Positions 7,484-57,785 of a DNA stretch of 64,000 nt are shown here, one piece after another; position 1 is the stretch's first letter; every line of letters begins with the position of its first letter. The translations under genes were made by a program, and so were the position numbers. The stretch is from an uncultured Gammaproteobacteria bacterium (GTDB lineage: Bacteria; Patescibacteriota; Patescibacteriia; Magasanikbacterales; UBA922): positions 83,697 to 147,696 of the forward strand of contig CAZTEU010000002.1 in NCBI GenBank assembly GCA_964612105.1. Direction: 5' to 3'. Below the pieces are notes generated by a model that had not been told where the DNA came from, searched no databases, and saw only the letters and a list, made by a program, of their open reading frames with translations.

Positions 7484-7638
7484 CCACCGCTGACAACAGC
7501 CAGTCAAGACGTATCGCGGGGAGAGAGTGTAAGTACAAGTACTCACAGACCGTGATATGTTTTGGGTCTGGCTGATGCCAAGGGTGGTGGTTATTATAAT
7601 CCTCACTCAACCCTTTTGTAAAGATTGAGAATGGGATG

Positions 7639-7712
7639 CCGGAATCGTTTTATCGATTCCGGCTTAGCCCTCCTAATTTTCAAAGAACATAGTGATAACG
7701 CGCAGTCATCAC
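7639..7712. repeat. island-I repeat element copy 1: perfect 9-bp-stem palindrome CCGGAATCG-ttttat-CGATTCCGG + conserved 3' flank (cctcctaattttcaaagaacat...gataacgcgcagtcatcac)
   Basis: Direct repeat of 9047-9121 (about 85% identity over ~75 bp); ends 29 bp from the stop of the minus-strand gene 7741..8835. Confidence 0.6.
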
Positions 7713-7740: not shown

Positions 7741-8835
7741 CTAGCACGCCTCGGAGTACACGCCGTTGAGAGTGTCCAGCAACACCTGCATGGTGTTGTT
7801 GTCGATCACGCCCAGCGTACGAGCGCTCTTGATCGTGCACTCGACCAACTCGTGCACATCCTCCCACCGGTGCGGTCGGTGAAGCCCCATCTCCGTGGCC
7901 AGCGCGTTGTGCTCGTAGCGACGCAGATTGGCAATCTCATTGATCTGCGCACGGAGCGGGTTGGCCCACCGGTCGTACATCGCCTGGAACTGCAGGTTGA
8001 ACACCCGCGCCTCGTCCACCTCGAACGCGATGTTCGAGCGGAGATTCCAGTAGAACTCCTCGGTGGTCTCGAAGCTACGATAGTCGTTGCCAACGAAGCG
8101 TCGGGCGATCCCCCGCAGCTTGGAGAAGCTGGAGTTGGGGTGACACCGGCGGATGTCGGTGAACACGGCCCAGAGGTTGCGCGCCTTGCGCAGGTTCTCT
8201 TCCTCATGGAGACGCTGGGCCTTGGCCAACGCCTCGGCATCGGCCTTCTTCTTCTGGATGACCGCGACGTACAGTGCTGACTTGGAGACGTAGGTCTCCG
8301 GGCTGTCGATGCCGTTCGCCTTGGCGAACTGGTTCGCATCGTAGCGGAGCCAATTCTTGCGCTCCGTCACCGTCCAGCGACGCTGGGTATCTACGACCAC
8401 CTGAGCCATGTCGATCCACAGCCAGTTGGCGTGGCTACGCAGTGCGTAGCCGACGCCCTTGCCGTTGCGGGTCATCTTGGCGATGATCCCCGTGATGAGA
8501 CGCTTAGCCTCGGAAAGATCCGCATCCAGGATGGATGCGTTGTGCCGGAGAACCTCCGGCACACCCTTGCCCACGTTGAGGAGATCGCTGATCTCCCCCT
8601 CGACGAGATGGCGCGCCTCGGAGAGGTTGATCCCCATCCGACAGGCGCGCTTCATCTGCCCGCCCGTGAGCTCGGTGCCCTCGATCAGTGCCGTCTCGAT
8701 ACCGTCGAGTTCGGCCTTGACCAGCTCCTCACGGAGGTCGGCCACAGCATCGGCACCGCCGAGCTTCTTGGTGATCACGGCGTCCGGGGACTTCCCCGCA
8801 CGCAACATCTTCTTCACCTTCTTGCGAATGCTCAT
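7741..8835 (-). CDS. hypothetical protein, GC-rich island I gene A; no recognisable domain
   Basis: ~60% GC, GC3-rich codons; start set at MSIRKKVKK, preceded by GGAGGG 5 nt upstream. The longer ORF-track start lacks an RBS. Confidence 0.55.
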   Translation of the reverse strand: MSIRKKVKKMLRAGKSPDAVITKKLGGADAVADLREELVKAELDGIETALIEGTELTGGQMKRACRMGINLSEARHLVEGEISDLLNVGKGVPEVLRHNASILDADLSEAKRLITGIIAKMTRNGKGVGYALRSHANWLWIDMAQVVVDTQRRWTVTERKNWLRYDANQFAKANGIDSPETYVSKSALYVAVIQKKKADAEALAKAQRLHEEENLRKARNLWAVFTDIRRCHPNSSFSKLRGIARRFVGNDYRSFETTEEFYWNLRSNIAFEVDEARVFNLQFQAMYDRWANPLRAQINEIANLRRYEHNALATEMGLHRPHRWEDVHELVECTIKSARTLGVIDNNTMQVLLDTLNGVYSEAC

Positions 8836-9046
8836 AACTCCCTCCTGTGGGAATAGTACGTGGTGTTGCCAAACACCTGTCCTTTTCATCCGTCAATGGA
8901 TGACCACCAGCGCGAGCAGCGCCGATAGAGACTTCAATTGTATAGAACTGCATAGGTCGTTGGCACGACCGCAGAGGAGCAAACACTCGCCCTCACTGCC
9001 CCCCGCACCCACCTGTTATGATAGGTACGAGAAACATTGTAGGACC

Positions 9047-9121
9047 CCGGAATCGTTTTATCGATTCCGGGTTTCCCTCCTAGTTTTCAAAGAACATTTC
9101 CGAGTAACGCATGGTCACTAC
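9047..9121. repeat. island-I repeat element copy 2 (same palindrome CCGGAATCG-ttttat-CGATTCCGG + conserved flank)
   Basis: Ends 4 bp from the stop of the minus-strand gene 9125..10234. Confidence 0.6.
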
Positions 9122-9124
9122 AGA

Positions 9125-10234
9125 TCACTTCTTGAGACAGGCGCCAGCACCAGTGCAGACCTCATTAGACCCGCAGTCTTTGTTGGTCTGACATTCATAG
9201 CACCAGTACACGGCACGAGGCTTCGTGGCCAGGAGCTTTCCATCCTCGGACTCGACGGCGACGCCCGAACCACAGTAGGGCTTCTCCGAGGGACAACCGA
9301 CCTCTATCGACTTGTCCGATGTGACCGCCGTGCATTGCTGACAGAGTCCGTAGCTCCCGTTGTGCATAATGCAATACTCGCCCCATGACGAGCCCTTGCA
9401 GTCCAAATCAGTCTCGCAAAGACCACTGTTGATGCACGACTTGTCCTGCTCGTGCACACACCCCTTCTTGGGGAGACAGTAGTCGAACGTGCAGAACTTG
9501 CCATCGTCACAGTCGTAGTTGGACTTGCAGACTTCGACGTTCTTGCAATTGCCGGACTTCTTGTCGCACGAGTCAATGGTGTTGGGGTTGCTGTCGTCGC
9601 AGTCCTTGGTACCATCCGACTGGCATTTTTGCTTGAAGAAGTTGCAGAACTCCATCGTGCAGACATTGCCGTCGTCACACGGCAACTTGATGCCTTTCTC
9701 CTGCAGTTCACCAATGCACTTTCCACCAAAGCAGAAGGAGACGTTGGTGCAGAGGTTGCCGTCGTCACAGCTGTCTCCGTCAACCATGGACGCGAAGTTT
9801 TGACAGCCACTGGCTTCGTCACAGGAGTCGGCGGTGCACTCGTTGTTGTCGTGACAATCGACCTGCGAGTGAACACACTCATTGTTGTCGCAGGAGTCGA
9901 TGGTGCAGGAGTTGTAATCCTCGCACTCCTCGTTGGTCTTGCACTCGACCGACGGCTCAATCTCCACCTCGCCTTCTTTCGTCGGCGTGGCGGAAACCGG
10001 AGTCTCCACCGGAACCTCGACCATCTCTTTCTCGATGATGACCGTCTCGACCTCCACCTCCACGGTCTCCGTGTTGGTGATGGTTTTGGTCTCGCCCTCG
10101 ACGATCACGACCTGCGCCGAACTGTCATCGCCAACGCCAGTGTAGTCACTGGTGCAGGCAACGGAATTCAGGATGCCGAGGATGAACGCCAGCGCGAACA
10201 GTTTGCCCAAGTGGGCCTTGATCAGATTCAACAT
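9125..10234 (-). CDS. secreted lipoprotein with Cys-rich repeats (C-T-x-D-x-C / CDDGN motifs, Myxococcus-type cysteine-rich repeat-like)
   Basis: Signal peptide + lipobox (ILNSVAC); repeated ...NxCTxDSCD... and CDDGNxCT units, many Cys. Start at second Met (AAGGAG RBS 6 nt upstream). GC-rich. Confidence 0.6.
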   Translation of the reverse strand: MLNLIKAHLGKLFALAFILGILNSVACTSDYTGVGDDSSAQVVIVEGETKTITNTETVEVEVETVIIEKEMVEVPVETPVSATPTKEGEVEIEPSVECKTNEECEDYNSCTIDSCDNNECVHSQVDCHDNNECTADSCDEASGCQNFASMVDGDSCDDGNLCTNVSFCFGGKCIGELQEKGIKLPCDDGNVCTMEFCNFFKQKCQSDGTKDCDDSNPNTIDSCDKKSGNCKNVEVCKSNYDCDDGKFCTFDYCLPKKGCVHEQDKSCINSGLCETDLDCKGSSWGEYCIMHNGSYGLCQQCTAVTSDKSIEVGCPSEKPYCGSGVAVESEDGKLLATKPRAVYWCYECQTNKDCGSNEVCTGAGACLKK

Positions 10235-10332
10235 GACTAACTCCTTCACCCGACTTGCGGGTGTTCGGTTTGTGGCGCAACTGCCATTCGGAATCCGTTT
10301 GGACGCCTAGGGTTGTCAGTCGCACCACGCGC

Positions 10333-15762: not shown

Positions 15763-16710
15763 TTAGAGCATTGGATCAGTCGCCTTCTTGGGACGATCGA
15801 TCCAGTCACTCATGCTGATCACACGACCAGCCTGAGCGGACTTGACACCCTTGGTCTTCGTCAGGTGCTTGGCGATGAATTTCAGAATCTCATCCTTGGT
15901 GAAGGTGCTGTCACCGAACGGGGCAAAGACCGAGGTCTTCTTCCCGATGGTGAACTTGGCGTCCTTCTCGTACTCGAGGTACAGGGCAAAGATGGGATCC
16001 TTTTTGGTCTCGTAGGTGTTGAAGACCCCGGGCGTGTTCTCCATGAAGCGGTCCGTCCAACCACCGTCATCCGACGGGATTGGTGGTCTGAAATGGACAA
16101 CGAGCCTATGATCACGGACGACAGCCAGCCAGTGGTGCGTGCCGGTCTTCTTGGAGACCATCTTGCCGACACCAGCCGGTCGGATGTAGTTGGACCAATA
16201 AGGGAAGTCCCGCACGAAACGCTCTTCCAGACTCGGCATGACCTCACAGAGGATTCTCTCCTCCTGCTCGCACCAGAACTGGGTCGCCCACAGCAGGTTC
16301 TTGTAGGTTCCCAACTCGCGCTTGCAGACGCCGAGCTTGTGATCAGCATCGCGGAGATCCTTCAGGTCTCTCTGCTGAGCCTCTTTGTCCTTCTTCTGTT
16401 TCTCTTCCGCCTGAGCAACAGGCCAACAGCTTGCCAGGAAGATACCAACTTCCCGCTTGAGCTCGGTGGCGTCCTTCTTGACCACCTTGTCACGGCGGAA
16501 GCTCGCGTACGAACCACGGTACTCGCTGATCAGCGAATACGCCCTGTTCTTCCGCTGAGTATCACCAGACTTGTCCGCACACTCGACCGCCTCTTTGAGG
16601 AGGTTGTCGACCACGCTGTACGTGACCTCTTCCTCTTCCCTCTCAGTCTGGCAACCCAGGACGGACATGCTGGTCGCAACGAGCACGAGACACACAAACA
16701 AATTCTTCAT
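15763..16710 (-). CDS. lipoprotein of unknown function (GC-rich island II)
   Basis: Start at MKNLFVCLVLVATSMSVLGCQ (signal peptide + lipobox) with GGGAG RBS; ~58% GC. The antisense ORF 15700..16737 is judged spurious. Confidence 0.55.
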   Translation of the reverse strand: MKNLFVCLVLVATSMSVLGCQTEREEEEVTYSVVDNLLKEAVECADKSGDTQRKNRAYSLISEYRGSYASFRRDKVVKKDATELKREVGIFLASCWPVAQAEEKQKKDKEAQQRDLKDLRDADHKLGVCKRELGTYKNLLWATQFWCEQEERILCEVMPSLEERFVRDFPYWSNYIRPAGVGKMVSKKTGTHHWLAVVRDHRLVVHFRPPIPSDDGGWTDRFMENTPGVFNTYETKKDPIFALYLEYEKDAKFTIGKKTSVFAPFGDSTFTKDEILKFIAKHLTKTKGVKSAQAGRVISMSDWIDRPKKATDPML

Positions 16711-16816
16711 CTCAATCTCCCGCTCCCGTTGCATTAGGGAGCTCAGTTTCGATACGCGTAGGACCTCCCCACGCACACCAGATAAAGCTCCATAAATACA
16801 CTATTATGGACGTACA

Positions 16817-39348: not shown

Positions 39349-40269
39349 ATGGGTAGCAACGGAAGAAACTCGGGACAGATCCTGTTCATGGACTGGAATT
39401 TCACTGAAGACAAGTCCGAGAGTCAGCGCTGGGAGCGACTCCTCCAGAGCTGCGACTACATCGGTCGCTGGAAGGAAGGTGTCACACCCGACCACTTCGG
39501 CGGGAAGACCCTCGCGAAGATCAGCAACCTGTTCGTTGAGGCGATGAAGATTGTCGCACCCAAACTGGAGTACAAAACCTCACGGCCGGCGCTCTACAAG
39601 ATCCTGTACCGTCACCCGAGACGGGTCGTCATCCGCGTGGACAAGAGCCTCTCAATTCCGCGACGTGTGGAGAATGGTCAGGATGTGTTCGGGTCGGACT
39701 GCGGTCTGAACATGGCCACGCGCCTGAAGCTCGTGAACGGCAATTTCAACAAGTCGCAGGGTATCCTGCGGACTGTGCTGAACAACGTCGCCAACGAGAC
39801 CACGACCAACGTCTCCGAAGCCTGCATCGACATGCTGTGGACCATCTCGCGCCTGGTCAATGGGCTGGGCATCCGCACCGACAAGGGCATGCAGTACGAG
39901 GGAGAGCTCATCTCGCCATGGCACATCGTTGTCGAGCGAGGGACCATGTCTCCCAAGAAGATGCTCGAACTCGAGCAGCAGAATGCCATCGAAGAGGCCG
40001 CTGCGAAGAAGGGGGCGGACCTGACTCAGTCTGAGAAGCATTCGGCGCTCTGCCGATACAAGGCCAAAGAGCGCGATGCTGGTCATGTGCGCCACGCCAA
40101 GATCCTCAAAGACTGGGATCTCGACGACTGGAAGGCGGAAGCGCGAGACTGCGGTGTGCGGTACGAAAATGATGTCGAGCTCGACACCCTCTCCACTGCG
40201 GTTCGCGCCAACGTGGAAGCCCGTGTCGGCAAGGCCTGGAAGCGCCTGAAGAAGTCCACGTCCAAGTAG
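39349..40269 (+). CDS. hypothetical protein (GC-rich island III); no recognisable domain
   Basis: 306 aa, ~58% GC, RBS GGGAGAAG upstream. Confidence 0.5.
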   Translation: MGSNGRNSGQILFMDWNFTEDKSESQRWERLLQSCDYIGRWKEGVTPDHFGGKTLAKISNLFVEAMKIVAPKLEYKTSRPALYKILYRHPRRVVIRVDKSLSIPRRVENGQDVFGSDCGLNMATRLKLVNGNFNKSQGILRTVLNNVANETTTNVSEACIDMLWTISRLVNGLGIRTDKGMQYEGELISPWHIVVERGTMSPKKMLELEQQNAIEEAAAKKGADLTQSEKHSALCRYKAKERDAGHVRHAKILKDWDLDDWKAEARDCGVRYENDVELDTLSTAVRANVEARVGKAWKRLKKSTSK

Positions 40270-47386: not shown

Positions 47387-50300
47387 TTAATTTTTTTGGA
47401 CTTTTAGAGCCACTTTTGCCCCTGGGAGCTCTACTTCTACGCCACCCTTACCTTTCTTTATATCCTCACTACGTGTAGACTTGGCTATTTCTTCTCTGTG
47501 TTTATCAAAAACACTCTCCACTATCTTATCTTTAGAATCCCAAACAACAGTACCAGAATCATTTATGGTAAGTTTCTGCTCTTTCCTCATCTGATTAATT
47601 GCACGTATAAGTTCACGAGCAAGACCTTCTTCTTTAAGGTCTTCAGTAATATTCACATCCATAGACACTTTTATTTCTCCATCTTCTCTAGAATCCCACT
47701 TTTTGTTTCCAGAACTTACAACCTCTTTTACATTTAACTCTTCAGAGATAAGTTGCTCATAGTCTTTTATGTTTTTTACTCCAGAAACAGCGCAAGTAGC
47801 TAGCGGTTGTCGTACGCGAATACCTACTTCCTTTCTTAGTGACATTCCAAGCTCAACTGCCTTTCTTGTTTTTTCCATTTCATCTAATATTTTTTCATCT
47901 ACCTTTTTTTGCTTTTGTGGCCACATTTCCAAATGAACTGACTCTTTATAATCACCGGAGCCGTATTGTTTTACTGATTGATAAATCTTCTCAGACACAA
48001 ACGGAGTGAATGGTGCCATCACTTTTGAAAGAGTGAGTAATACGTCATGCAAGGTGGCTAGGGCAAATTGTTTATCCGCCTCATTATCCCCCTTAAACCT
48101 ATCACGAGAGCGTCGCACGTACCATTGTGATAAATCAGAGATAAAATCCTGTATTGGTCTACTTGCATATGCAAGCTCATAATTATTCATTCTGTCTGTT
48201 GTCTCTTTTACTAGCTGATTAAGTCTAGCCATAATCCATTTATCTAGGACATTGTCTGATTTTTTCTTTGGCTGTTTAGACTCTTTTGCAAACATTTCAT
48301 AGAATGACAAAACATTCCACAGTGTGTTTACAACTTTGTTATATACTTCTCTCACTCCAGATTCGGAAAAATTGAGGCCTTCCGCATGCATTACAGGTGA
48401 TGTAACCAAATAGAAACGCATTGCGTCTGCGCCATATGTTTCTAAAACTTTCATTGGGTCAGGGTAGTTCTGTAAACGCTTGCTCATTTTCTTTCCATCT
48501 TCTGCCAGCACAATCCCATTTACAATCACATTACTAAATGCAGGAACCATTTTGCCTGTTGGAATTGATCTTTCCTCGCCCATTGTAAGAGCTGTTGCTA
48601 AGACATGAAGTGTATAAAACCATCCACGTGTCTGATCCTGCCCTTCTGCAATAAACTCGGCAGGAAATCCTTTTTCAAATTTTTCTTTATTCTCAAAAGG
48701 ATAATGCATTTGTCCGTATGGCATTGAACCAGACTCAAACCAGCAATCTAATACTTCTGCTACTCTGTGATATTTCTTTCCATCTTTGTTTATAACAAGT
48801 TTGTCTACAACATGTTTATGTAAATCTTTTACAGGTTTACCAATCAACTCCTCCAGTTCTTTTACAGAACCTACGCAAATAACATCGCCGTCTTCACTCT
48901 TCCAAGCTGGAAGAGGTGCGCCCCAGAATCTATTTCGCGAAACTGCCCAATCTCTTGCGTTTTCCAACCATGTTCCAAATCTTTTTTCTTTTATGTGCGA
49001 TGGAACCCACCTTGTATTCTTTTCATTGTTTTTTACCAGCTTATCACGTATCTCACTCACACGAACAAACCAACTATTTGTTGCATAATTAAGAAGAGGT
49101 GTATCACAACGCCAACAGTGAGGGTAGCTGTGTAAATATTTCTTTTTTGAAAATATTTTATTATTCCCAGCAAGCCATTTAATAATTTCTATATCTGCTT
49201 CCTGAGGATTTTCTTTGGGTTTTACTTTTTTTCCTGCAAAATCCGTAACCTCTTCCGCAAACGTTCCGTCCATTTTCACATGCTGAATAAGTTCTGTGCC
49301 CTCTTCCAAACCAACCTGATAATCATCTTCACCAAAGGCCGGAGCAATATGCACAACCCCAGTACCTTCTTCTGTAGTTACAAAATCACCAGAGACAATA
49401 TGAAAAGCGTTCTTTGTCTTAGCAAAATAAGGAAACAGTGGTTCGTATTTAGTTCCAACCAAATCTTTTCCTTTCATTTCTGCTAATTTATACGGAGTTG
49501 TCATCAGCTCCTTTTCCTGCTCATTTGTAAGCCCTTCTAAGTTAAAAGGAGGCCAATAGTTTGTAACTTCTGGATAATCCTTACGGCTTGAATTCCAGTT
49601 TGCAAAAATTTCTTTTGCTAACAAATAATTTTCATACACAGGTTCTCCTTTTTCATCCTGACGTACAAAAAATTTGGCGATTACGTATGTTATATCTGGA
49701 TTAACAGCGAGCAAAGCGTTTCCAGGCAGTGTCCAAGGTGTTGTTGTCCATGCAAGAGCATGAACAGAACCGTCTATGCCATCAAAATCTTTATTTAACT
49801 TAAACTTCGCAGTAACAGAAATGTCTTTTATATCTTTGTAGCCCTGAGTAACTTCAAAATTAGAAAGAGGAGTAACACAACGAGGGCAAATGTGCATTGC
49901 TTTTTTTCCTTCGTACACTAAATCTTTGTCCCAAAGTTGTTTAAAGACCCACCAAACACTTTCCATGTATTCTATATCCATTGTCTTGTAGTCATTTTCC
50001 ATATCTACCCAGCGACCCATGCGATTGATTGTCTTTTTCCATTCTTCCGCATACTTTAGGACAGTCTTATGACACGCGCTATTGAACTTATCTACCCCAT
50101 AATCAACGATTTCTTGACGGCCGTGTAAATCCAGCTCTTTCTCCACTATATTTTCTATTGGAAGACCGTGACAATCCCACCCCCATTTTCTCTCAACCCT
50201 GTGACCTTGCATCGTCCAGTATCTAGGCACAACATCTTTCATTAAAGATGCAACGATATGACCATAATGAGGAAGTCCTGTAGCAAACGGAGGTCCGTCA

Positions 50301-50413
50301 TAAAAAACATACGGATTGTCTTCCGGACGTTCATTTACGGATTTTTCAAAAGTTTTATTCTTTTCCCAAAACTCTAAAATTTCTTTCTCATTTTTATCCG
50401 CTTGATAAGGCAT
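47387..50413 (-). CDS. ileS: isoleucyl-tRNA synthetase
   Basis: HIGH-region PPFATGLPHYGH, WDCHGLPIE, KMSKR, 1008 aa with editing domain. Confidence 0.9.
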   Translation of the reverse strand: MPYQADKNEKEILEFWEKNKTFEKSVNERPEDNPYVFYDGPPFATGLPHYGHIVASLMKDVVPRYWTMQGHRVERKWGWDCHGLPIENIVEKELDLHGRQEIVDYGVDKFNSACHKTVLKYAEEWKKTINRMGRWVDMENDYKTMDIEYMESVWWVFKQLWDKDLVYEGKKAMHICPRCVTPLSNFEVTQGYKDIKDISVTAKFKLNKDFDGIDGSVHALAWTTTPWTLPGNALLAVNPDITYVIAKFFVRQDEKGEPVYENYLLAKEIFANWNSSRKDYPEVTNYWPPFNLEGLTNEQEKELMTTPYKLAEMKGKDLVGTKYEPLFPYFAKTKNAFHIVSGDFVTTEEGTGVVHIAPAFGEDDYQVGLEEGTELIQHVKMDGTFAEEVTDFAGKKVKPKENPQEADIEIIKWLAGNNKIFSKKKYLHSYPHCWRCDTPLLNYATNSWFVRVSEIRDKLVKNNEKNTRWVPSHIKEKRFGTWLENARDWAVSRNRFWGAPLPAWKSEDGDVICVGSVKELEELIGKPVKDLHKHVVDKLVINKDGKKYHRVAEVLDCWFESGSMPYGQMHYPFENKEKFEKGFPAEFIAEGQDQTRGWFYTLHVLATALTMGEERSIPTGKMVPAFSNVIVNGIVLAEDGKKMSKRLQNYPDPMKVLETYGADAMRFYLVTSPVMHAEGLNFSESGVREVYNKVVNTLWNVLSFYEMFAKESKQPKKKSDNVLDKWIMARLNQLVKETTDRMNNYELAYASRPIQDFISDLSQWYVRRSRDRFKGDNEADKQFALATLHDVLLTLSKVMAPFTPFVSEKIYQSVKQYGSGDYKESVHLEMWPQKQKKVDEKILDEMEKTRKAVELGMSLRKEVGIRVRQPLATCAVSGVKNIKDYEQLISEELNVKEVVSSGNKKWDSREDGEIKVSMDVNITEDLKEEGLARELIRAINQMRKEQKLTINDSGTVVWDSKDKIVESVFDKHREEIAKSTRSEDIKKGKGGVEVELPGAKVALKVQKN

Positions 50414-50465
50414 AATGTTATAAATCTCATTATTATTTAGTGTTAACTACTATAAGGAAAAGAGG

Positions 50466-50504
50466 GGGCTGTGTCAACAAAATTACAAGACGCCCACCTT
50501 TCGA
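50466..50504 (-). terminator. terminator-like GC-rich hairpin at the end of island IV (minus strand)
   Basis: GACGCCCACctttcgaGTGGGCGTC; on the minus strand followed by UUGUAAUUUUGUU. Confidence 0.4.
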
Positions 50505-50543
50505 GTGGGCGTCGTCGTACTCCTACATTCCCCAAGCTTTCAC

Positions 50544-50966
50544 TCAAGGATATCGTTCTTTCATGTACTGCTCGAGAAGTGCCCGGCGCGCATGTTCTGG
50601 AACCCAACGCAGAGCTCCATCCAAACCCATGAAAAAACTGGTCATGCGTGAATCGAGAGTGTCTGCACCGTCGTCTCTGTGGCCAGAGAACCCACCTTCT
50701 GCCTCCTTGCAGAGAAGCTCGTCCATACGACTTGCCAAAAAATCCTTGCTGAATTGGAAAGTCTCGACAGTCCCATCCGTCTCTCTGCGCTCGATAATCT
50801 TGCGCTTCAACAGCTCCTCAAAATCGCCATCCTTTACACTAACTCCGCCAAATTCGCGGAAGTCGATATCCAGGAAAGCCCTCTTGGTGAACGGGTGCCA
50901 TTTCAAGAACACCATCATCGTCTGAACGACACCATATAGAGGACCCCCTTCTTTCACTCTGCACAT
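50544..50966 (-). CDS. hypothetical protein (island IV)
   Basis: 140 aa, GC-rich, no family recognised. Confidence 0.45.
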   Translation of the reverse strand: MCRVKEGGPLYGVVQTMMVFLKWHPFTKRAFLDIDFREFGGVSVKDGDFEELLKRKIIERRETDGTVETFQFSKDFLASRMDELLCKEAEGGFSGHRDDGADTLDSRMTSFFMGLDGALRWVPEHARRALLEQYMKERYP

Positions 50967-51000
50967 GTCACCCTCCTTTTTGGGTTACCTCTCGTTATGA

Positions 51001-51849
51001 TTATGACAAGGCGTTGTTGAGAAGCTCACCAACACCACCTGCACCAGGAACGATGTAGTGGTTGTCGGTCAGACCTCGTTCTTCGTCTGGGTGTGCACCC
51101 GGAATGCTGTTGAGTGCCTTTTCGGATGACAGTCCACGATCCAGGCGCAGAGCCCAAATCTCCATCTTGGGAAACCGCTTGGTCACGTGCCGGATGAACT
51201 CCGGAGTGACCATGAGGTTCATGGAAATCATCTTCGCGGGCATGCCCGGAACGGCGTCTCCAGCGTACAGCTCTGCAGCCTTGCACAGCGAGTGGCCTGT
51301 GGCTCCCATTGGATCTGGGAAGATGACGATGTGCTCGTCCACATTACCACAAGGCTTGAAGCCCGACAGTCCTGCACCAGTGACACGCTCAGACTTCCCC
51401 TCAACAGTCCTCTGCATCATGAGGTGATCCTGGTGAAGACCAGCAGGCAGGAGGATTTCCCCAAGCGCCTCGAAACAAACACCCGCTGGCGACGTGCCCG
51501 CACGAGCGACGTTCACAACCGTGACTTTTGTATCGTAGTCAACCACAGGCGCATGAAACTGCGCTTGCGCTGGATACTGCCTCACCATGCGAGTTGTCGC
51601 ACGTCTGTGGAAGCGTGGAAATGACCTGGAAACCACCGTGTGAATCATCCGGCGGTAAAGCTGTTTGACCAGCTTGTTCATCCGAGGGTGTAGACACTCC
51701 TCCGACCCGAACTCCGCCAGCCAGGTGAAGATCATGGGGTCCCAGGCCAAGTGCACCTTGGAACCGTAGAAGTGATGCACCTCGTCGGCACGAACCGCCG
51801 TCCCTTCTTGGTGTTTTTCCGTGTAAATGATATCGAAATGAGCAGGCAT
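51001..51849 (-). CDS. uracil phosphoribosyltransferase-like (PRTase) protein with N-terminal extension
   Basis: PRPP-binding-loop analogue IVIFPDPMGATGHSL (cf. ALIVDPMLATGGS) and C-terminal YIVPGAGGVGELL (cf. YIIPGLGDAGD). Start at MPAHF with AAGGAG RBS. Confidence 0.6.
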   Translation of the reverse strand: MPAHFDIIYTEKHQEGTAVRADEVHHFYGSKVHLAWDPMIFTWLAEFGSEECLHPRMNKLVKQLYRRMIHTVVSRSFPRFHRRATTRMVRQYPAQAQFHAPVVDYDTKVTVVNVARAGTSPAGVCFEALGEILLPAGLHQDHLMMQRTVEGKSERVTGAGLSGFKPCGNVDEHIVIFPDPMGATGHSLCKAAELYAGDAVPGMPAKMISMNLMVTPEFIRHVTKRFPKMEIWALRLDRGLSSEKALNSIPGAHPDEERGLTDNHYIVPGAGGVGELLNNALS

Positions 51850-51991
51850 GTTCTTTCTCCTTTTTGCACTCTTGTATTGGCGCAAATTATGAACAGCTTA
51901 CACTAATATCAGCATAAAAGCAAGAAGCACCTGCGCTTATCGACGAATCGACTTGCGCTAGGTGCTCTTTACTCCTTTTTTTTGTTCTTCG

Positions 51992-53020
51992 CTAGCCAGG
52001 TATGCCGAGTGGTAGCACAGCCTGTCCGTTGCTGTTGTCAGCAGTAGGACTTCCCCTCTCTGCTCGCATGCGCTCCAGCTCCGGTCCGATCAACCACTCC
52101 AGCTCTTCCCTGATTGTTGGGTAGAATCTGCTGTCAGGATTGGTCAGAATTGCTCCACGAAGGTGCATCCGTGAGCTCCTGTCTGGAACCTCGTCTGGCA
52201 GATGCCCCCGAACCAACTCAGCAATGATCTTCGTGGCATTGCTGGCGTTCTGGGTCATGTTTCTCACGACTCTTGCATTGTCGACGTGCTCACCATCCTT
52301 CCAAGCATCCAGGTCTGTGACCAGTGCCATGTGCCCATGAATGAAACCAAGCTCCGCAGCGAGACAGGCTTCCTGTGCCCAGTTCATACCGACAACATCC
52401 ACCTTTATGTCACTCACTTCAAGAATGCCTCCATTCATGTTCTTGTACAGAAGTGACTCCGCCTTTGTGGAGAACTGTGGACCATCGATGCAGATATGTG
52501 CGGATGGTGTTGTGTGTCGCCAGAAGAGCGTCTTGTCTTCCATGCCGAGAGCACGTTGACCGGCTCTGATCAGCGCGATGCGGAATTCCGGGTCCACCGG
52601 CGTTGCTGTGCTCACATGTCCCGCAAGACCTCTCCTCCAGAAGAAGGTCTTCTGACGATTGCTGGTCCTGTTGATGAAGTGCGTTGGAAGCACGATCCTG
52701 CACTCTTCGATTGCTTCTTGGAGCGAACCCACCGCGTTCACCGAGAGTGTGTGTGTCGCGTGCAACATATCGAGTACATGGAAATGCGCCCTGGACTGGA
52801 TCAGCGAAGGCGGGTCTGTATGATCCTCCCCGTGACGATTCACGAAGATAATATTCTTCCCTGCCATCTCGCCAACCACCACGTGTACTCCAGGCGGACC
52901 CTCGTCCAGCACTTCGTAGTACGGACTCTTGTAGTAACGACTCTCGAGAATCGTCATACCTTCGATCATGGCGAGTCCTGTGCCGCCTATCACTCCCAAC
53001 ACCGTTGGTTGTGTTTTCAT
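51992..53020 (-). CDS. 5'-methylthioadenosine / purine nucleoside phosphorylase (PNP/MTAP family)
   Basis: VLGVIGGTGL N-terminus, NIIFVNRHG, VVGMNWAQEACLAAELGFIHGHMALVTDLDAW typical of MTAP. Start at MKTQPT with GGAGGG RBS. Confidence 0.7.
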   Translation of the reverse strand: MKTQPTVLGVIGGTGLAMIEGMTILESRYYKSPYYEVLDEGPPGVHVVVGEMAGKNIIFVNRHGEDHTDPPSLIQSRAHFHVLDMLHATHTLSVNAVGSLQEAIEECRIVLPTHFINRTSNRQKTFFWRRGLAGHVSTATPVDPEFRIALIRAGQRALGMEDKTLFWRHTTPSAHICIDGPQFSTKAESLLYKNMNGGILEVSDIKVDVVGMNWAQEACLAAELGFIHGHMALVTDLDAWKDGEHVDNARVVRNMTQNASNATKIIAELVRGHLPDEVPDRSSRMHLRGAILTNPDSRFYPTIREELEWLIGPELERMRAERGSPTADNSNGQAVLPLGIPG

Positions 53021-53088
53021 CTCGTCCCTCCATGGCGCCTTGGCGCCTGTTGTGTCCTTTCGGATTTTATCACCGCAGGACATGAGCG

Positions 53089-54207
53089 TCAAACCTTTTC
53101 CTTAAGGTCTGGTTCGATCAGTCTGTAATAAATCTCCATCGCTTTTGCAAGAACATCTGGAGGGACAGCTTTTGACAACACACCGATTTGATCCAGTGCA
53201 TAGTCGAGAAGCACCTCTTCCTTACTAAGCTTATCATACCAAGACCTTGGAACCTTTGCTGTCCAGACGTTCAGATACGCTCTTACCGTTGAGTCGTCTC
53301 GCACCCCACGAAGCCATCCGCTTTCTCTCATTCTGTCCACGAACACACGGTAGGCCTTCTTGTTCTTGAAGGTTCTTCCAGGACCCACCATTTTTCTTGT
53401 GAACTTAGAAGTGTGGAATGGAATTCCTCCTGACAATTGGAACAGCTCTTGTCTAGTTGCATTTGCAGCTTCCATCGTACCAGACATCTTTGTTGTGGCC
53501 CCTTCTATGGCCTCCGAAGGTTCTATGCATAATTCTGATGTAAAGATGGCGAGAGTAACTTGGAGCTCCCACAAGAGCATCCCTTCGTCTGCAGGACATG
53601 CAGCCCGAAGTTCGTCAGGAAGGTTCTTATCTACCCAGGAGTACAGGTAACCAACCTCTCCTGTGTGCGTATGGCGAATTCCTTTGAGCCATCCCCTTCT
53701 ACAGGCCCGTGATAGAAACGAACGAAAGGACTGGTCTGTTGAGAAGTGGGCGTCCAGCCCATTACCAACCATTTCATAGGACATGTCCTTGGCGTAAAAC
53801 GGACGAGCTTGAGATTTTACACGCAAACGGATCATGCGCGTAAGATGTTCTCGAGCCTTCCCACTCATAATTCTAGTCCTTGGTGTTGGCACGGACCCAA
53901 TATCTTCTACGACCTGTTTTGCCCAGGCACTTCTACCCCTCTTGAACCTGTACTGATAGTCCGACCAACCACCGTTTGCCCTTAATGACGCGTGCCTGCG
54001 CTCCAAAAGACGTCCTGGATGATCTTCTACGATTGAGTTCTTGTTGATCTCGCGGACGATATCTCCAACTGATGTTATGGAAGGTACCTTATGGTCTCTT
54101 GCTGCGAGACTAACGTCTGGAATATAGAACCAGCCCAAGCCAAAGCGGTAGTATATCCACCGCATGAGCGTCAAACCTTCTGACATGTTACTATCTTGGC
54201 ATGTCAT
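53089..54207 (-). CDS. hypothetical protein (island IV), no recognisable domain
   Basis: 372 aa, GGAGGTG RBS 4 nt upstream of the ATG. Confidence 0.5.
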   Translation of the reverse strand: MTCQDSNMSEGLTLMRWIYYRFGLGWFYIPDVSLAARDHKVPSITSVGDIVREINKNSIVEDHPGRLLERRHASLRANGGWSDYQYRFKRGRSAWAKQVVEDIGSVPTPRTRIMSGKAREHLTRMIRLRVKSQARPFYAKDMSYEMVGNGLDAHFSTDQSFRSFLSRACRRGWLKGIRHTHTGEVGYLYSWVDKNLPDELRAACPADEGMLLWELQVTLAIFTSELCIEPSEAIEGATTKMSGTMEAANATRQELFQLSGGIPFHTSKFTRKMVGPGRTFKNKKAYRVFVDRMRESGWLRGVRDDSTVRAYLNVWTAKVPRSWYDKLSKEEVLLDYALDQIGVLSKAVPPDVLAKAMEIYYRLIEPDLKEKV

Positions 54208-54334
54208 TACTCACCTCCGTGCGATGAATTGATGTAAACTCTTACGAGCCACACTTGGACGCTATCACTTTTCCTTATAAAATTCAAGACCTCTGCCGTG
54301 TACTCACGCATATGCGCTTTCCTGCGACAGAGGT

Positions 54335-54799
54335 CTAGTCCTTGTTTGTCCAGCGATATCTACCGCGACTCACTCTCTCCAGAAGTTCGTGTTGGATAAG
54401 GGTTTCCAACATACGGTATCGTGCTGTCCTATTGCGAGAAGGTCTCCAATCCTCACGCTTGGAAAACTCAGCCAAGTCGTCCGTTGTAAACTCCGGACCG
54501 GTAAGCTCCCAAAGTTGCTCTGCTCCGTAGACAGACTTCATCCTCCCCCATTTCTCAGTCCCGTAGACCCATTCGTAGCTGAAGGTATGCCTTGGTCTTG
54601 GGTGCTTTGTGCTCTTGTGCACAGTCTGTCGTATCCACCCTTTTTCCACAAACCTGTTGAGTATGGTTACTGCGAAAGTTGCGGTAGGTAGTGGCGAATT
54701 ATGACCTGTAAGGTCGTTCACGTGTGCGAACTTGAACTCGTCGTTCGGGATTTGGCCACGCAACCAATCCCGGAGCTCTGTGTCTCTTTCTGGTTGCAT
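54335..54799 (-). CDS. hypothetical protein (island IV)
   Basis: 154 aa, GGAGGT RBS; C-terminal part has winged-helix-like character (weak). Confidence 0.45.
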   Translation of the reverse strand: MQPERDTELRDWLRGQIPNDEFKFAHVNDLTGHNSPLPTATFAVTILNRFVEKGWIRQTVHKSTKHPRPRHTFSYEWVYGTEKWGRMKSVYGAEQLWELTGPEFTTDDLAEFSKREDWRPSRNRTARYRMLETLIQHELLERVSRGRYRWTNKD

Positions 54800-54800
54800 A

Positions 54801-55034
54801 TTAACCTCCGCCTCTCTTCTGTGTCCTTAGGTCCTCGTGCAACATGTAGTGAGGCAGTCCTCTTTTCCTGCGTCCCGCCTTCTTGAGCACACCCAAGGCA
54901 ATGAGTCGGTCTACGGGTATACGAATCCCAGTGTTGCGAATCTCACTGACTGTGTATTTCCCATTCTGACCAAGATGCGCTTTGATTCTCATCACAGCCC
55001 GCTTCACAGGCTCTGGAAGTTCTGAAAGCTTCAT
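54801..55034 (-). CDS. small basic putative DNA-binding protein (HTH-like)
   Basis: 77 aa; TVSEIRNTGIRIPVDRLIALGVL resembles a helix-turn-helix; AGGAG RBS. Confidence 0.4.
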   Translation of the reverse strand: MKLSELPEPVKRAVMRIKAHLGQNGKYTVSEIRNTGIRIPVDRLIALGVLKKAGRRKRGLPHYMLHEDLRTQKRGGG

Positions 55035-55179
55035 AGTCTTCTCCTGTATTGCGACCTACCGGTCTTGGCTGGTGGAAACACTCCTTGTACAGAGACACTA
55101 GCAGAACAAAGACACAAAGTCAACCTGTTGCTCACCCTAAAACCTCGTGCTATAATCCCGCTATGTATAATGTATAACT

Positions 55180-55632
55180 ATGTATAAAGGAAAACTGTAT
55201 ATTGCTAGTGACCATGGGGGATATAAGCTAAAAAAGCGTCTTATTCGCTATGTGGAAAAAGAGCTAAAACTAAAAATTGAGGATATGGGACCACATGAGT
55301 ATAATGAAGAAGACGATTATCCAGATTATATTATTCCTCTTGCTAATGAGGTGGTAAAAAATAAAGGACGTGGTATAGCAATATGCAGAAATGGAATCGG
55401 GGTGTCTGTTGCATCTAATAAGGTGAAAGGGATACGTGCAGGAGTTGGATATAGTATAAAAGTGGCAGAAAGTATGATGAAAGATGATAATACAAACATA
55501 CTTGCTCTTGCTGGAGACACACTTTCACAGGATCATGCAATGGCGATTGTAAAAAGATGGCTCAAAACTGAGTTTAGTAAAGAGAAACGCCACAAGCGAA
55601 GAATTAATAAAGTTATGGCGATAGAGAAATAA
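55180..55632 (+). CDS. rpiB: ribose-5-phosphate isomerase B
   Basis: LYIASDHGGYKLK...ICRNGIGVSVASNK canonical RpiB/LacAB. Confidence 0.85.
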   Translation: MYKGKLYIASDHGGYKLKKRLIRYVEKELKLKIEDMGPHEYNEEDDYPDYIIPLANEVVKNKGRGIAICRNGIGVSVASNKVKGIRAGVGYSIKVAESMMKDDNTNILALAGDTLSQDHAMAIVKRWLKTEFSKEKRHKRRINKVMAIEK

Positions 55633-55633
55633 T

Positions 55634-56290
55634 ATGTCCGTTAAGATAATCCCATCTACACTTGTACAATCCAAAAATGAGTTTCTTTCGCAGATAAAAG
55701 GACTAGGAGAGTCCTTAGATATGATTCAGCTGGATATTGCAGATGGAGGGTTTGTAGACAATAAGACCTGGGCTGACCCAAAAGTAGTAAGAAATATATC
55801 TTTGGATGTCGAACTACATTTAATGGTAGATGATCCATACGAAGAACTAAAAAAATGGGAGGCTGTTTCTCAGATAAAAAGAGTGCTTATCCATTACGAA
55901 TCAGAGGGGGAAAGCACAAAAGAGTTGATACATAAACTAAAAGATAATAATATTTGGCAAATAGGCGTTGTCCTTAATCCTGAGACAGACATTTCTGTTC
56001 TAGAGTCATTTCTTGGAAGTATAGATGTTGTGATGTTCATGGGGGTACACCCTGGATTACAAGGTCAGTCATTTTTACCAGAAACTCTAGAAAAAATAAG
56101 GCAATTTAAAAATATGAACACAAGCCACATGATTTCCATAGACGGTGGTGTAAACAAAGAAACAATAAATGATATTGTAATGGCTGGAGCAGACATCGTC
56201 TGTCCCGGAAGTGCAATATTTCATACGGATAAAACTCCCTCAGAAAATGTTGAGGAGATGAAATACATAATAGATAATATTAATAAATAG
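55634..56290 (+). CDS. rpe: ribulose-phosphate 3-epimerase
   Basis: IIPSTL...LDIADGGFV...MGVHPGLQGQSF TIM-barrel epimerase motifs. Confidence 0.85.
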   Translation: MSVKIIPSTLVQSKNEFLSQIKGLGESLDMIQLDIADGGFVDNKTWADPKVVRNISLDVELHLMVDDPYEELKKWEAVSQIKRVLIHYESEGESTKELIHKLKDNNIWQIGVVLNPETDISVLESFLGSIDVVMFMGVHPGLQGQSFLPETLEKIRQFKNMNTSHMISIDGGVNKETINDIVMAGADIVCPGSAIFHTDKTPSENVEEMKYIIDNINK

Positions 56291-57304: not shown

Positions 57305-57505
57305 ATGAACATAGCAAAGATTAAAACAAAGAAGCCTATAATCACGTTGTTGGACTTTTTTAGCATGAGAAGTGGGGCAAAAAGTAGTGCAGAAAAAGGG
57401 CAAAAAGTGGACAAGATTATAGAAAATGCCAGGAAGGACTACAACGCGGGTAATTACACTACTCATAAAAATGCTAAAAGCATCATTGCAGAATTAGAAT
57501 CATAA
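57305..57505 (+). CDS. putative antitoxin of a type II TA pair
   Basis: 66-aa ORF immediately upstream of the RelE/ParE-like toxin gene. Confidence 0.4.
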   Translation: MNIAKIKTKKPIITLLDFFSMRSGAKSSAEKGQKVDKIIENARKDYNAGNYTTHKNAKSIIAELES

Positions 57506-57521
57506 TTTATCTGAGATTAGT

Positions 57522-57785
57522 ATGGAGGTTAATCTCTCACCGGGCTTTAAACGAGCCTACAAAAAAATGACGCAACAAATTAGGGAGGATTTTCAAGAAA
57601 AAATTACTATTTTTTGCAAGAATCCAAGACATCCATCACTTAAAACGCACAAACTGAAAGGTTATTTACAAGAATGTTTTGCGTTTCGACTCAAAAATGG
57701 ATATAGGGTTCTTTTTGAATTTAAAAAACCAAACACGGTTAATATGCCAGACATAGGACCTCATGATTTATACAAAAAGAGATAA
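57522..57785 (+). CDS. RelE/ParE-family toxin (YoeB/Txe-like)
   Basis: 87 aa; ...HPSLKTHKLKGYLQECFAFRLKNGYRVLFEF... matches the RelE/ParE core pattern. Confidence 0.6.
   Translation: MEVNLSPGFKRAYKKMTQQIREDFQEKITIFCKNPRHPSLKTHKLKGYLQECFAFRLKNGYRVLFEFKKPNTVNMPDIGPHDLYKKR

Follow-up and report, generated by a model that had tools for sequence, protein, structure and literature searches.

Nucleoside phosphorylases and uracil phosphoribosyltransferases (UPRTs) together make up the classical two-step route from uridine to UMP. PNP domains also occur in defence systems, as in DtcC of Detocs and Cap17 of CBASS, but there they are of a nucleosidase type distinct from MTAP, and pairs of a phosphoribosyltransferase (PRTase) and a wHTH protein occur in type III retrons, which also act in defence. 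Genomic-island hotspots are fixed sites between conserved divergent core genes, empty or variably filled across relatives. We analyzed a stretch of DNA of 64,000 nucleotides (the window) that carries, between the divergent ileS and rpiB genes, an island encoding an MTAP-family phosphorylase (PNP), a UPRT-family PRTase (UPRT), and four further proteins, p77, p154, p372, and p140. The reading that we favor, with a probability of about 0.6, is that accessory genes acquired by lateral transfer were assembled stepwise at this hotspot into a mosaic island, whose enzymes would extend salvage.

The island (positions 50481..55100, minus strand; 4.6 kb) lies in a small, AT-rich genome between the host ileS promoter, where a promoter-like site at 50477-50449 gave 11/12 matches, and the host rpiB promoter region. 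Its borders follow from the GC profile and from alignment with the locus of a sister genome (L016), in which host-like conserved promoter sequence was seen beyond both limits. All six minus-strand open reading frames of the original prediction were present where it had placed them, and the foreign composition that it had claimed was borne out: the GC content of the island is 0.49-0.56 (0.49-0.55 per kb) against approximately 0.38 in the host, and the GC3 of its genes is 0.48-0.64 against 0.25-0.38 in host genes (about 0.28 for the host). Judged by this composition, the island is foreign DNA inside an AT-rich genome. Since it was 100% identical, wherever overlap exists, in 15/15 fetched contigs (L001-L015, window-derived loci from 10 sample accessions in JGI, ENA, and Logan, retrieved with two island proteins), an assembly chimera is excluded. 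The host's relatives stem from CPR-rich data sets, and the host clade of small AT-rich genomes is probably Patescibacteria/CPR.

Comparison with related contigs, approximately 20 of which have the frame ileS, rpiB-rpe-trxB in common, showed that some have an empty gap of 120-940 nt between ileS and rpiB and that others carry unrelated cargo there, among it an R-M system, a DGR, and GC-rich orphans. Thus, the site is an insertion hotspot. One contig (L153) carries defence genes here, with GmrSD_N and a HEPN protein besides an HpaII R-M system, and another (L108) has an RT with bAvd. At the same site, the sister genome has only a p154 homologue and UPRT; in a further contig (L091), UPRT stands alone and adjoins trmD. 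The arrangement is like that of genomic-island hotspots in its fixed position between conserved divergent core genes and its variable filling. It differs from them in lacking att-like repeats that flank the island borders, a tRNA anywhere in the window, and any match of the six island proteins to a recombinase family. A further difference is that insertion appears to have proceeded one gene at a time, in some cases precisely where the next gene starts and with a short duplicated stretch.

The original prediction described the six genes as a single tightly packed operon. This does not agree with the spacers, which measure 1, 127, 5, 142, and 34 nt in the order p77, p154, p372, PNP, UPRT, p140, nor with a sister genome holding only p154 and UPRT. 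A strong hairpin with a U-rich tract was found in each of the two long spacers and at the 3' end: one terminator-like element after p154 (54283..54336, minus strand; -26.7 kcal/mol, z -4.5; inverted repeat I20), another after PNP (51916..51975, minus strand; -31.6 kcal/mol, z -5.7), and, at the island end, an intrinsic-terminator-like hairpin with a T-tract (50479..50513, minus strand; -24 kcal/mol, z -5.6), the 10-bp stem of which has 7 GC pairs. The genes likely form three units, p77-p154, p372-PNP, and UPRT-p140. The GGAGG ribosome-binding site that had been ascribed to all six genes holds for five, which have an AGGAG or GGAGG core; PNP has only AAGGAAAAGG.

UPRT (51001..51849, minus strand; 282 aa) was confirmed as a member of its family by a Pfam UPRTase match above the gathering score (1e-12; 48 bits, cut-off 27 bits), and its active-site motifs are essentially intact. 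The N-terminal extension of about 90 aa that had been claimed for it is an artefact. Its ATG at 51849 and RBS align with the start in the sister genome, and it belongs to a clade of approximately 272-aa proteins with a common N-terminal region; with the true start at this ATG there is no such extension, and the protein begins only about 30 residues ahead of the canonical UPRT start. The upstream region (51850..51915, minus strand), with a CATAAT -10-like box and an AAGGAG RBS, is likewise conserved in the sister genome. With canonical Upp (PF14681) the protein shares, in alignable form, the PRPP loop PDPMGATG and the ARAG and YIVPG motifs, but compared with the approximately 208 aa of Upp it has the additional N-terminal residues (~30) and an insertion of ~15 aa ahead of the C-terminal motif, which reads PGAGGxGE in its clade and PGLGDAGD in canonical UPRTs. 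It scores far under the NCBIfam upp cut-offs (TIGR01091, PRK00129).

Within the ~272-aa Myxococcota/Bdellovibrionota clade, UPRT is a full-length member (43-56% identity) and keeps 68/68 clade-invariant columns, including the PRPP loop and YIVPGxGGxGE. There were 3849 homologues, the best non-self match being the sister CPR-like genome (56%) and the next ones 50-52%, and more than 584 matching stretches in GTDB species-representative genomes. The clade UPRT is a core gene in Myxococcota and Bdellovibrionota, and in most Myxococcota loci it is directly followed by an HGPRT-like Pribosyltran gene (hpt), whereas the window UPRT has no hpt and lies in an AT-rich CPR-like genome. A profile of the clade matched only UPRTs in the PDB; we found no biochemical study of the clade in the literature. 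In a neighbor-joining tree, the window and sister-genome UPRTs were sisters within a Myxococcota-labelled clade, and a third, Patescibacteria-labelled genome had gained the clade UPRT independently. On this phylogenetic evidence, Patescibacteria-like genomes have received the gene on at least two occasions. Simple transfer followed by amelioration is insufficient to explain the high GC3 of a gene gained before the two hosts split.

PNP (51992..53083, minus strand; 363 aa) had been called MTAP-like, and this assignment was confirmed by its Pfam, NCBIfam, and PDB matches and by alignment. It has a Pfam PNP_UDP_1 match of 2e-21, above the gathering score, its top PDB matches are MTAPs, and approximately 265-285 of its residues can be aligned with MTAPs (E 7e-40 to the metagenomic RsfP, PDB 4GLF; human MTAP, 1CB0). 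The phosphate, ribose, and adenine motifs of the family are kept (GGTG, RHGxxH, AVGS, GPQFSTxAES, TDxDxW), as are 26 of 27 MTAP-invariant columns. The exception is position 234, where the GMT motif has a Thr in 99/99 homologues and Asn in PNP (T234N); we take this Thr to be the equivalent of Thr197 of human MTAP, a ligand of phosphate and ribose. PNP is nevertheless a long-branch member, with a best non-self BLASTP identity of 38% (32-42% in a 100-sequence alignment), and its NCBIfam MTAP score (TIGR01694) of 182 bits lies under the 274.85-bit cut-off and under every NCBIfam MTAP equivalog cut-off. Against the approximately 285 aa of MTAP, its greater length includes a private 21-aa tail at either terminus and three internal insertions (6, 7, and 10 aa).

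The p372 gene (53089..54207, minus strand) has a GGAGG RBS, and its stop lies 5 nt ahead of the PNP ATG. It is flanked by exact 17-nt direct repeats (AAGGTTTGACGCTCATG) that are in frame and lie within the 5' end of the PNP open reading frame: the upstream copy (54163..54179, minus strand) corresponds to p372 codons 3-8, and the downstream copy (53081..53097, minus strand) covers the stop of p372 together with the ATG of PNP. Excising the 1082 bp between the copies gives a single continuous PNP frame. No relative of p372 other than itself was found among 5.8 billion proteins, and its AF2 model failed (pLDDT 34). Within the protein, one module is present twice (residues 135-194 and 262-318; z = 12.6) and is probably winged-helix-like; a faint PaaX-type wHTH match lies at residues 159-180.

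The description of three of the remaining proteins as domainless does not hold for p372, with its significant repeat, or for p154 (54335..54799, minus strand), a putative DNA-binding regulator. The AF2 model of p154 (mean pLDDT 61; 71-89 in the C-terminal half) has an order of secondary-structure elements suggestive of two consecutive winged helices, as in the tandem winged-helix proteins (Vps25/ESCRT-II-like; PaaX, PadR, and AbiEi-type wHTH). The top Foldseek match was the tandem winged helix of Vps25, although such matches were weak and generic (TM ~0.3, E ~6e-4). Neither p154 nor p372 has a significant sequence match to any family; p154 gave faint AbiEi and IclR wHTH matches, and the AbiEii toxin partner of AbiEi is absent here. 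Among 1.84 billion representatives, the p154 family has two members including p154 itself, and in the sister genome the homologue (44% identity) adjoins UPRT. The orphans p77 (54801..55034, minus strand; 77 aa; RBS AGGAG) and p140 (50544..50966, minus strand; 140 aa; RBS AGGAGG) are both absent from the sister genome and gave no domain or family matches in Pfam, NCBIfam, PADLOC, or PHROGs, so that the "HTH-like" label once given to p77 has no model behind it. The p77 stop lies 1 nt ahead of the p154 start, and the sequence just upstream of p77 resembles the RBS and start of the sister-genome p154 homologue. At p140, 34 nt after UPRT, no relic of the donor's neighboring genes was found. Of the findings that the original prediction had named as speaking against it, synteny in a related genome was seen for p154 and UPRT, but the unknowns match no ordinary metabolic families.

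The possibility that the island is an anti-phage module, in which PNP- and PRTase-like effectors deplete nucleotides or modify them upon infection while winged-helix or unknown proteins sense or regulate, gains something from the R-M, HEPN, and RT cargo of the hotspot in relatives and from the faint AbiEi-type matches of p154, and the island shares broad superfamilies, winged-helix proteins, and a variable region with Detocs, CBASS, and type III retrons. It is nevertheless very improbable. PADLOC models matched none of PNP, UPRT, p372, p140, and p77 even at E <= 1, leaving only faint wHTH matches; no island protein had a PHROGs match under E = 0.02, and a scan of viral contigs with four of the proteins (p372, PNP, p154, and p140) gave no relatives. 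RT/msr-msd, ncRNA (no Rfam match), two-component sensor, kinase, cyclase, nuclease, and NTPase partners are all absent. The defence PNP and PRTase effectors belong to other subfamilies, whereas the island enzymes are a housekeeping MTAP and a UPRTase from a clade usually found beside hpt; UPRT would produce UMP and destroy no nucleotides, and the genes travel apart, as UPRT occurs without PNP in L016 and alone in L091.

It is equally hard to credit that the two enzymes form one uridine-salvage pathway, with the MTAP-like enzyme shifted to uridine phosphorolysis and feeding uracil to UPRT. The strong divergence of PNP, which includes the T234N exchange and private insertions close to the active site (residues 218-227), would fit such a shift, but the MTAP purine-contact columns are all kept (F204, S205, T206, and D257 and D259 of T-D-x-D-x-W), a terminator separates the two genes, and their acquisition times differ; the trimeric MTAP/PNP branch is not known to include a pyrimidine-specific enzyme. 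That the island is hitch-hiking DNA whose genes serve no joint function is unlikely, though less so: selection would act only on UPRT and perhaps p154, PNP would be decaying, and p372, p77, and p140 would be recent, possibly non-functional or de novo frames. It draws on the lack of relatives or family matches of these three proteins, the failed model of p372, the repeats that bracket p372 inside a former PNP frame, the T234N exchange, insertions, and low identity of PNP, and the absence of PNP, p372, p77, and p140 from the sister genome. Against it, the frames are intact and long, and at 48% GC one of 372 codons is very unlikely to arise by chance; ribosome-binding sites are good and coupling to the following gene is tight; PNP keeps nearly all invariant residues; and the p372 repeat is too well preserved for random sequence. 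All copies have the same sequence, so the population offers no polymorphism as a measure of selection.

In the stepwise mosaic that we prefer, the oldest layer would be p154, followed by the UPRT-family enzyme from a Myxococcota-type donor. The phosphorylase gene with its own terminator would then have been inserted between them, the p372 frame would have entered the phosphorylase 5' end in frame, leaving the 17-nt duplication, and p77 and p140 would have joined last at the island's two ends. p154 would most likely be a DNA-binding regulator of the neighboring UPRT unit; for p372, nucleic-acid binding is at most a proposal. The phosphorylase would use phosphate to split 6-aminopurine nucleosides (MTA, 5'-deoxyadenosine, adenosine) into adenine and a ribose-1-phosphate, and UPRT would convert uracil and PRPP to UMP. 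These would be independent salvage steps, linked only through pentose phosphate and PRPP, beside the host rpiB-rpe genes. Lateral transfer has moulded the metabolic repertoires of CPR, in which genes for nucleotide salvage are patchily distributed (PMC7304191). The acquired-salvage option of the original prediction is thus the one that fits best with a UPRT of this clade, and both enzymes may extend base and nucleoside salvage in the host.

Island IV lies between the host genes ileS (window 47387–50413, minus strand) and rpiB (55180–55632, plus strand) and comprises approximately 4.6 kb with six minus-strand genes: p77 (54801–55034), p154 (54335–54799), p372 (53089–54207), the MTAP-like phosphorylase gene PNP (51992–53083, 363 aa counted from its ATG), the uracil-PRTase-like gene UPRT (51001–51849, 282 aa counted from its ATG), and p140 (50544–50966). 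Its GC content is 0.49–0.55 compared with approximately 0.38 in the remaining window, and the GC3 values of its genes are 0.48–0.64, whereas those of host genes are 0.25–0.38. Fifteen overlapping contigs, fetched with two of the island proteins and originating from 10 sample accessions (JGI/ENA/Logan), all matched the island at 100% identity, which rules out an assembly chimera as its origin. With all 15 contigs identical over island IV, there was no polymorphism among strains for a dN/dS analysis.

The original prediction described the six genes as one tightly packed foreign operon with a GGAGG-type RBS at every gene. Its observations were largely right, except for the operon structure, the start and extension of the PRTase, and the labeling of the remaining proteins as domainless. 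The shared strand stands, but the spacers between the genes measure 1, 127, 5, 142, and 34 nt, and a strong hairpin followed by a U-rich tract is found at three places, i.e. in the 127-nt spacer, in the 142-nt spacer, and at the 3′ end of the island (energies of -26.7, -31.6, and -24.0 kcal/mol; z -4.5 to -5.7 against shuffled sequences). These terminator-like hairpins make three transcription units likely, namely p77–p154, p372–PNP, and UPRT–p140. A single operon is contradicted by the two internal hairpin and U-tract sites and also by L016, the locus of a sister genome, in which p154 and UPRT alone co-occur. An AGGAG or GGAGG core precedes five of the six genes; the exception, PNP, has just AAGGAAAAGG, and its translation may depend on coupling to p372. 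An E-value scan of the island spacers against Rfam gave no match to a riboswitch or other regulatory RNA.

The UPRT product matched the UPRTase domain PF14681 with 48.2 bits against a Pfam cut-off of 27 bits (profile positions 10–191 of 206), but missed the cut-offs of the NCBIfam upp equivalogs (47.4 bits vs 114, and 41.1 vs 208.35), and the whole clade of approximately 272-aa proteins to which it belongs has diverged from canonical Upp. Among 5.8 billion proteins searched, 3849 homologues were found, the best non-self match (56% identity) coming from a related AT-rich genome and the following ones being 50–52% identical. More than 584 stretches of GTDB species representatives encode the clade, and the labels of the best 80 of these are almost exclusively Myxococcota and Bdellovibrionota, with Anaeromyxobacter, Myxococcus, Vitiosangium, Halobacteriovorax, and Bradymonadia among them. 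In most Myxococcota loci an HGPRT-like Pribosyltran gene, a purine-salvage neighbor, directly follows the clade gene; no leftovers of such donor neighbors (hpt and others) were found inside island IV.

The island protein aligns with the clade over its full length and is nested in the clade tree as the sister of the L016 copy. It retains 68 of the 68 columns that are invariant across an 18-sequence clade alignment, including the PRPP loop PDPMGATG, ARAG, and YIVPGxGGxGE; its own PDPMGATGHS and YIVPGAGGVGE correspond to the family motifs DPMxATGxS and YI(V/I)PGxG. The active-site motifs of the PRTase, whose residues the original prediction had singled out for checking, are essentially intact. 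In canonical Upp, the GDAGD motif carries acidic residues, whereas the corresponding positions of the island protein are G and E. Searched against the PDB, the clade profile matched UPRTs exclusively, with the N-terminal, PRPP-loop, and C-terminal segments aligning. Since no biochemical paper on the 272-aa clade was found, we infer the activity of UPRT from its family membership. An unusual N-terminal extension of ~90 aa had been proposed for this protein and did not hold up. The TTG start in the ORF listing adds 12 residues, the L016 gene lines up in its start region with the RBS and the ATG at 51849, and the N-terminal segment is common to the whole clade, so that only ~30 residues precede the canonical UPRT start.

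The history of the island was examined by comparison with L016, whose host proteins share 74% (IleRS), 82% (GyrA), and 71% (RpiB) identity with those of the window. The rpiB–ileS gap of L016 contains a p154 homologue and a UPRT gene alone; gene order is therefore shared in a relative for these two genes, and the four others are missing there. Each of the two UPRTs is the best hit of the other, an NJ tree pairs them as sisters within a clade whose labeled members are all Myxococcota, and their upstream non-coding regions align with a CATAAT box, an AAGGAG RBS, and the ATG. The shared site, the sister relationship, and the aligned upstream regions of copies that are only 56% identical indicate that p154 and UPRT were acquired once, ahead of the split between the two hosts, and that the PNP unit, p77, and p140 were added later in the window lineage. 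The UPRT GC3 is 0.64 in the window (51001–51849) and 0.55 in L016 (8001–8912), compared with approximately 0.28 and 0.18, respectively, for the hosts themselves. Such persistently high GC3 since an acquisition predating the divergence is not predicted by simple amelioration. Another UPRT-clade gene adjoins trmD in a Patescibacteria group MAG (L091, JBBTXJ010000120.1, 797–1654). Its GC content is above that of its flank, and it falls in a different Myxococcota subclade of the NJ tree from the window copy, indicating an independent acquisition.

A metagenome scan with RpiB gave 80 loci. In approximately 20 contigs the ileS|rpiB-rpe-trxB frame is preserved and the gap fully covered. In about a dozen of them (within the set L105–L170) this gap is 120–940 nt long with host-like GC content, whereas in the others it holds 1.2–8.6 kb of unrelated cargo that is mostly GC-richer than the flanks. 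The cargo consists of GC-rich orphan ORFs in L106/L116, L117, and L136, an ECF-sigma fusion (588 aa) with a 703-aa orphan in L139, a DGR-like RT and bAvd pair with a GC-rich ORF in L108, and, in L153, an HpaII REase (R-M), a C5 methylase–RadC fusion, Vsr, GmrSD_N, a HEPN protein, and a transporter. None of the six island genes was present in 80 other rpiB loci, and relatives of the island proteins were found in the scan only in L016. The divergent genes ileS and rpiB thus flank an insertion hotspot.

Two observations were made on the rpiB side of the island. The host rpe (55634–56290) is 35% identical to the rpe of L016, compared with 71% for rpiB and 76% for trxB on either side of it, and it has ≤56% identity to the rpe of all other relatives, which suggests gene replacement or fast evolution. 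Further on, at 57305–57785 and 2 kb from island IV, a 66-aa ORF precedes an 87-aa protein that weakly matches a ParE-like toxin in Pfam; the two probably form a toxin–antitoxin pair.

The PNP protein contains the PNP_UDP_1 fold domain (PF01048; 76.7 bits vs the Pfam cut-off of 25.1 bits). Its match to the NCBIfam MTAP model TIGR01694 (E 1e-53, 182 bits) is under the cut-off of 274.85 bits, as are its matches to every other NCBIfam MTAP and MTIP equivalog, including the PRK models. The top PDB matches are MTAPs (4GLF RsfP at 7e-40, archaeal MTAPs, and human MTAP), and the closest non-self protein has ≤38% identity by BLASTP, with 32–42% in an alignment of 100 sequences. Its private insertions are a 21-aa tail at either terminus and internal segments of 6, 7, and 10 aa. 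Of 27 columns invariant among 99 homologues, 26 are retained (GG, RH, GS, GP.FST.AES, M, E, and TD.D.W). At the one remaining column, in the GMT motif, all 99 homologues have Thr and PNP has Asn234. The equivalent Thr197 of human MTAP binds phosphate and the ribose 3′-OH. As Asn could make the same hydrogen bonds, it is plausible that PNP is active. The retained Asp-x-Asp motif, which in MTAP structures goes with 6-aminopurine nucleosides, argues for these as the probable substrates.

The p154 family has two members among 1.84 billion cluster representatives: p154 itself and a protein with 44% identity at the corresponding site in L016. An AF2 model from this two-sequence alignment had a mean pLDDT of 61, with 71–89 in the C-terminal half, and its order of helices and strands reads as two consecutive winged helices. 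The best Foldseek matches were generic tandem-winged-helix proteins (Vps25 with E 6e-4 and TM ~0.3), and faint wHTH matches to AbiEi and IclR were obtained with Pfam and PADLOC. As a conserved neighbor with a predicted tandem-winged-helix fold, p154 is most simply explained as a DNA-binding regulator. For p372, a search of 5.8 billion proteins found no relative besides itself, and AF2, run on the single sequence, gave no usable model (pLDDT 34). It has an internal repeat (residues 135–194 and 262–318; z 12.6, none of 300 shuffles scoring as high) and a faint PaaX-type wHTH match at residues 159–180. The term domainless thus fails for p154 and p372; p77 and p140 had no family match in Pfam, NCBIfam, PADLOC, or PHROGs, and the HTH-like label proposed for p77 found no support there. 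Apart from the p372 repeat, BLASTP and Smith–Waterman comparisons showed no significant similarity among the island IV proteins, to the proteins of islands I–III (three other GC-rich patches of the window), or to the hotspot cargo of relatives.

The p372 gene has a further peculiarity. The 17 nt AAGGTTTGACGCTCATG (minus strand) are present twice as an exact direct repeat, in frame both times: the copy at window 54163–54179 covers p372 codons 3–8, and the copy at 53081–53097 spans the p372 stop codon and the PNP ATG. Deletion of the 1082 bp between the copies leaves one unbroken ORF, MTCQDSNMSEGLTLMSCGDK..., in which the p372 start codon is joined to PNP. Since one ORF is restored in this way, p372 has the appearance of an ORF inserted in frame into the 5′-terminal part of PNP, accompanied by a duplication of 17 nt. 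Directly upstream of p77, window 55040–55075 reads GGTAGGTCGCAATACAG and is similar to L016 7340–7395 (GGAGGTCGCCATGCAG), where the p154 homologue has its RBS and start codon. This is only suggestive, but p77 may likewise have gone in precisely where the resident gene began, with a degenerate remnant of the original start persisting upstream.

Islands I (7741–10249, with minus-strand genes at 7741–8889 and 9125–10249), II (15763–16776), and III (39349–40269) have GC3 values of 0.75–0.84, above those of island IV, and appear to have been acquired more recently, from a donor with high GC. Their proteins have no Pfam match, save the 374-aa protein at 9125–10249, which has Dicty_CTDC Cys-rich repeats behind a hydrophobic N-terminus. 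Each island I gene is followed by an element of ~58 nt (window 7634–7690 and 9042–9097), composed of ATGTTCTTTGAAAAYTAGGAGGG and then a hairpin, CCGGAATCGATAAAACGATTCCGG. The window has no further copy of this element, which resembles a cassette or a 3′ end that has been duplicated.

The best-supported reading is that island IV is an accessory island assembled stepwise at a hotspot, whose two recognizable genes add base and nucleoside salvage. PNP would carry out an MTAP-type phosphorolysis of adenine nucleosides to adenine and ribose-1-phosphate, and UPRT would convert uracil and PRPP into UMP. The product of neither enzyme is the substrate of the other; their sole link would be the pentose-phosphate/PRPP pool, near the host rpiB–rpe, and this is perhaps coincidental. 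A uridine-salvage pair formed by PNP and UPRT is very doubtful, as the adenine-type residues are conserved in PNP and the two genes appear to have been acquired separately. The recurrent independent acquisition and the long retention of UPRT in small AT-rich genomes argue that selection acts to keep the enzyme itself. This pattern is consistent with the published picture in which lateral transfer shapes CPR metabolic repertoires and nucleotide-salvage genes are patchy in CPR (PMC7304191); the CPR-like standing of the host is deduced from its relatives and their data sets. The acquired-salvage half of the original interpretation is supported. Passenger or decaying DNA, which would be plausible for p372, p77, and p140, is less plausible for the two enzymes and is unlikely as an account of the island.

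The other half of that interpretation, a nucleotide-targeting anti-phage defense module, fared poorly. The hotspot context and the faint AbiEi matches of p154 (PADLOC wHTH models, E 0.005–0.05) speak for it, but the other five proteins, both enzymes included, had no PADLOC match at E ≤ 1, and both enzyme subfamilies are housekeeping ones. Island IV had no Pfam or NCBIfam domains of defense partners (RT with ncRNA, histidine kinase, cyclase, or nuclease) and no Rfam RNA. In addition, its genes do not co-occur in relatives, and the four proteins scanned against IMG/VR (p372, PNP, p154, and p140) had no relatives on viral contigs, which also speaks against a phage or viral origin. PHROGs gave no match under E = 0.02 for any of the six proteins. 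With nothing meaningful in PADLOC and PHROGs for all six, defense was rejected as the primary reading, and we regard it as highly improbable. An AbiE toxin–antitoxin system was likewise dismissed (AbiEi_4 match of 17 bits vs a cut-off of 25; no adjacent AbiEii-type NTase gene). We also rejected an integrase island or prophage: no convincing att-like or inverted repeats were found at the borders, no recombinase family was represented among the six proteins, and ARAGORN detected no tRNA or tmRNA gene in the whole window (1–64000).

A bolder joint reading, which we consider improbable, is that this CPR-like clade captures foreign GC-rich ORFs singly at ileS|rpiB and elsewhere by an undescribed mechanism and keeps them GC-rich over very long times, and that p154–UPRT is a new module. 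An incoming ORF would land directly on the start of a resident gene, whose RBS and start region would be duplicated. One-at-a-time capture is proposed because of the 17-nt in-frame repeat at p372 and the putative relic of the p154 start upstream of p77, and the long GC-rich upkeep because UPRT has a GC3 of 0.55–0.64 in hosts that now share 74% IleRS identity. The tandem-winged-helix and UPRT pair would then be a regulator–enzyme module specific to these episymbiont-like bacteria, whose source may have been a host of the Myxococcota type.

That CPR bacteria acquire metabolic genes laterally has been documented before, and the salvage reading is therefore useful but expected. It was less to be expected that the winged-helix proteins are orphans, that an apparent in-frame insertion duplicated 17 nt, and that an anciently acquired gene has kept a high GC3; these points are leads rather than findings. 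Island IV represents laterally acquired metabolic genes, with curious details, at a hotspot of a reduced genome, and the ileS|rpiB gap is a well-defined insertion site that can be traced across the clade. If the salvage reading is true, the island would be a datable case of a genome-reduced, probably episymbiotic bacterium patching its nucleotide economy with genes of unrelated bacteria, the donor of UPRT being of the Myxococcota type.
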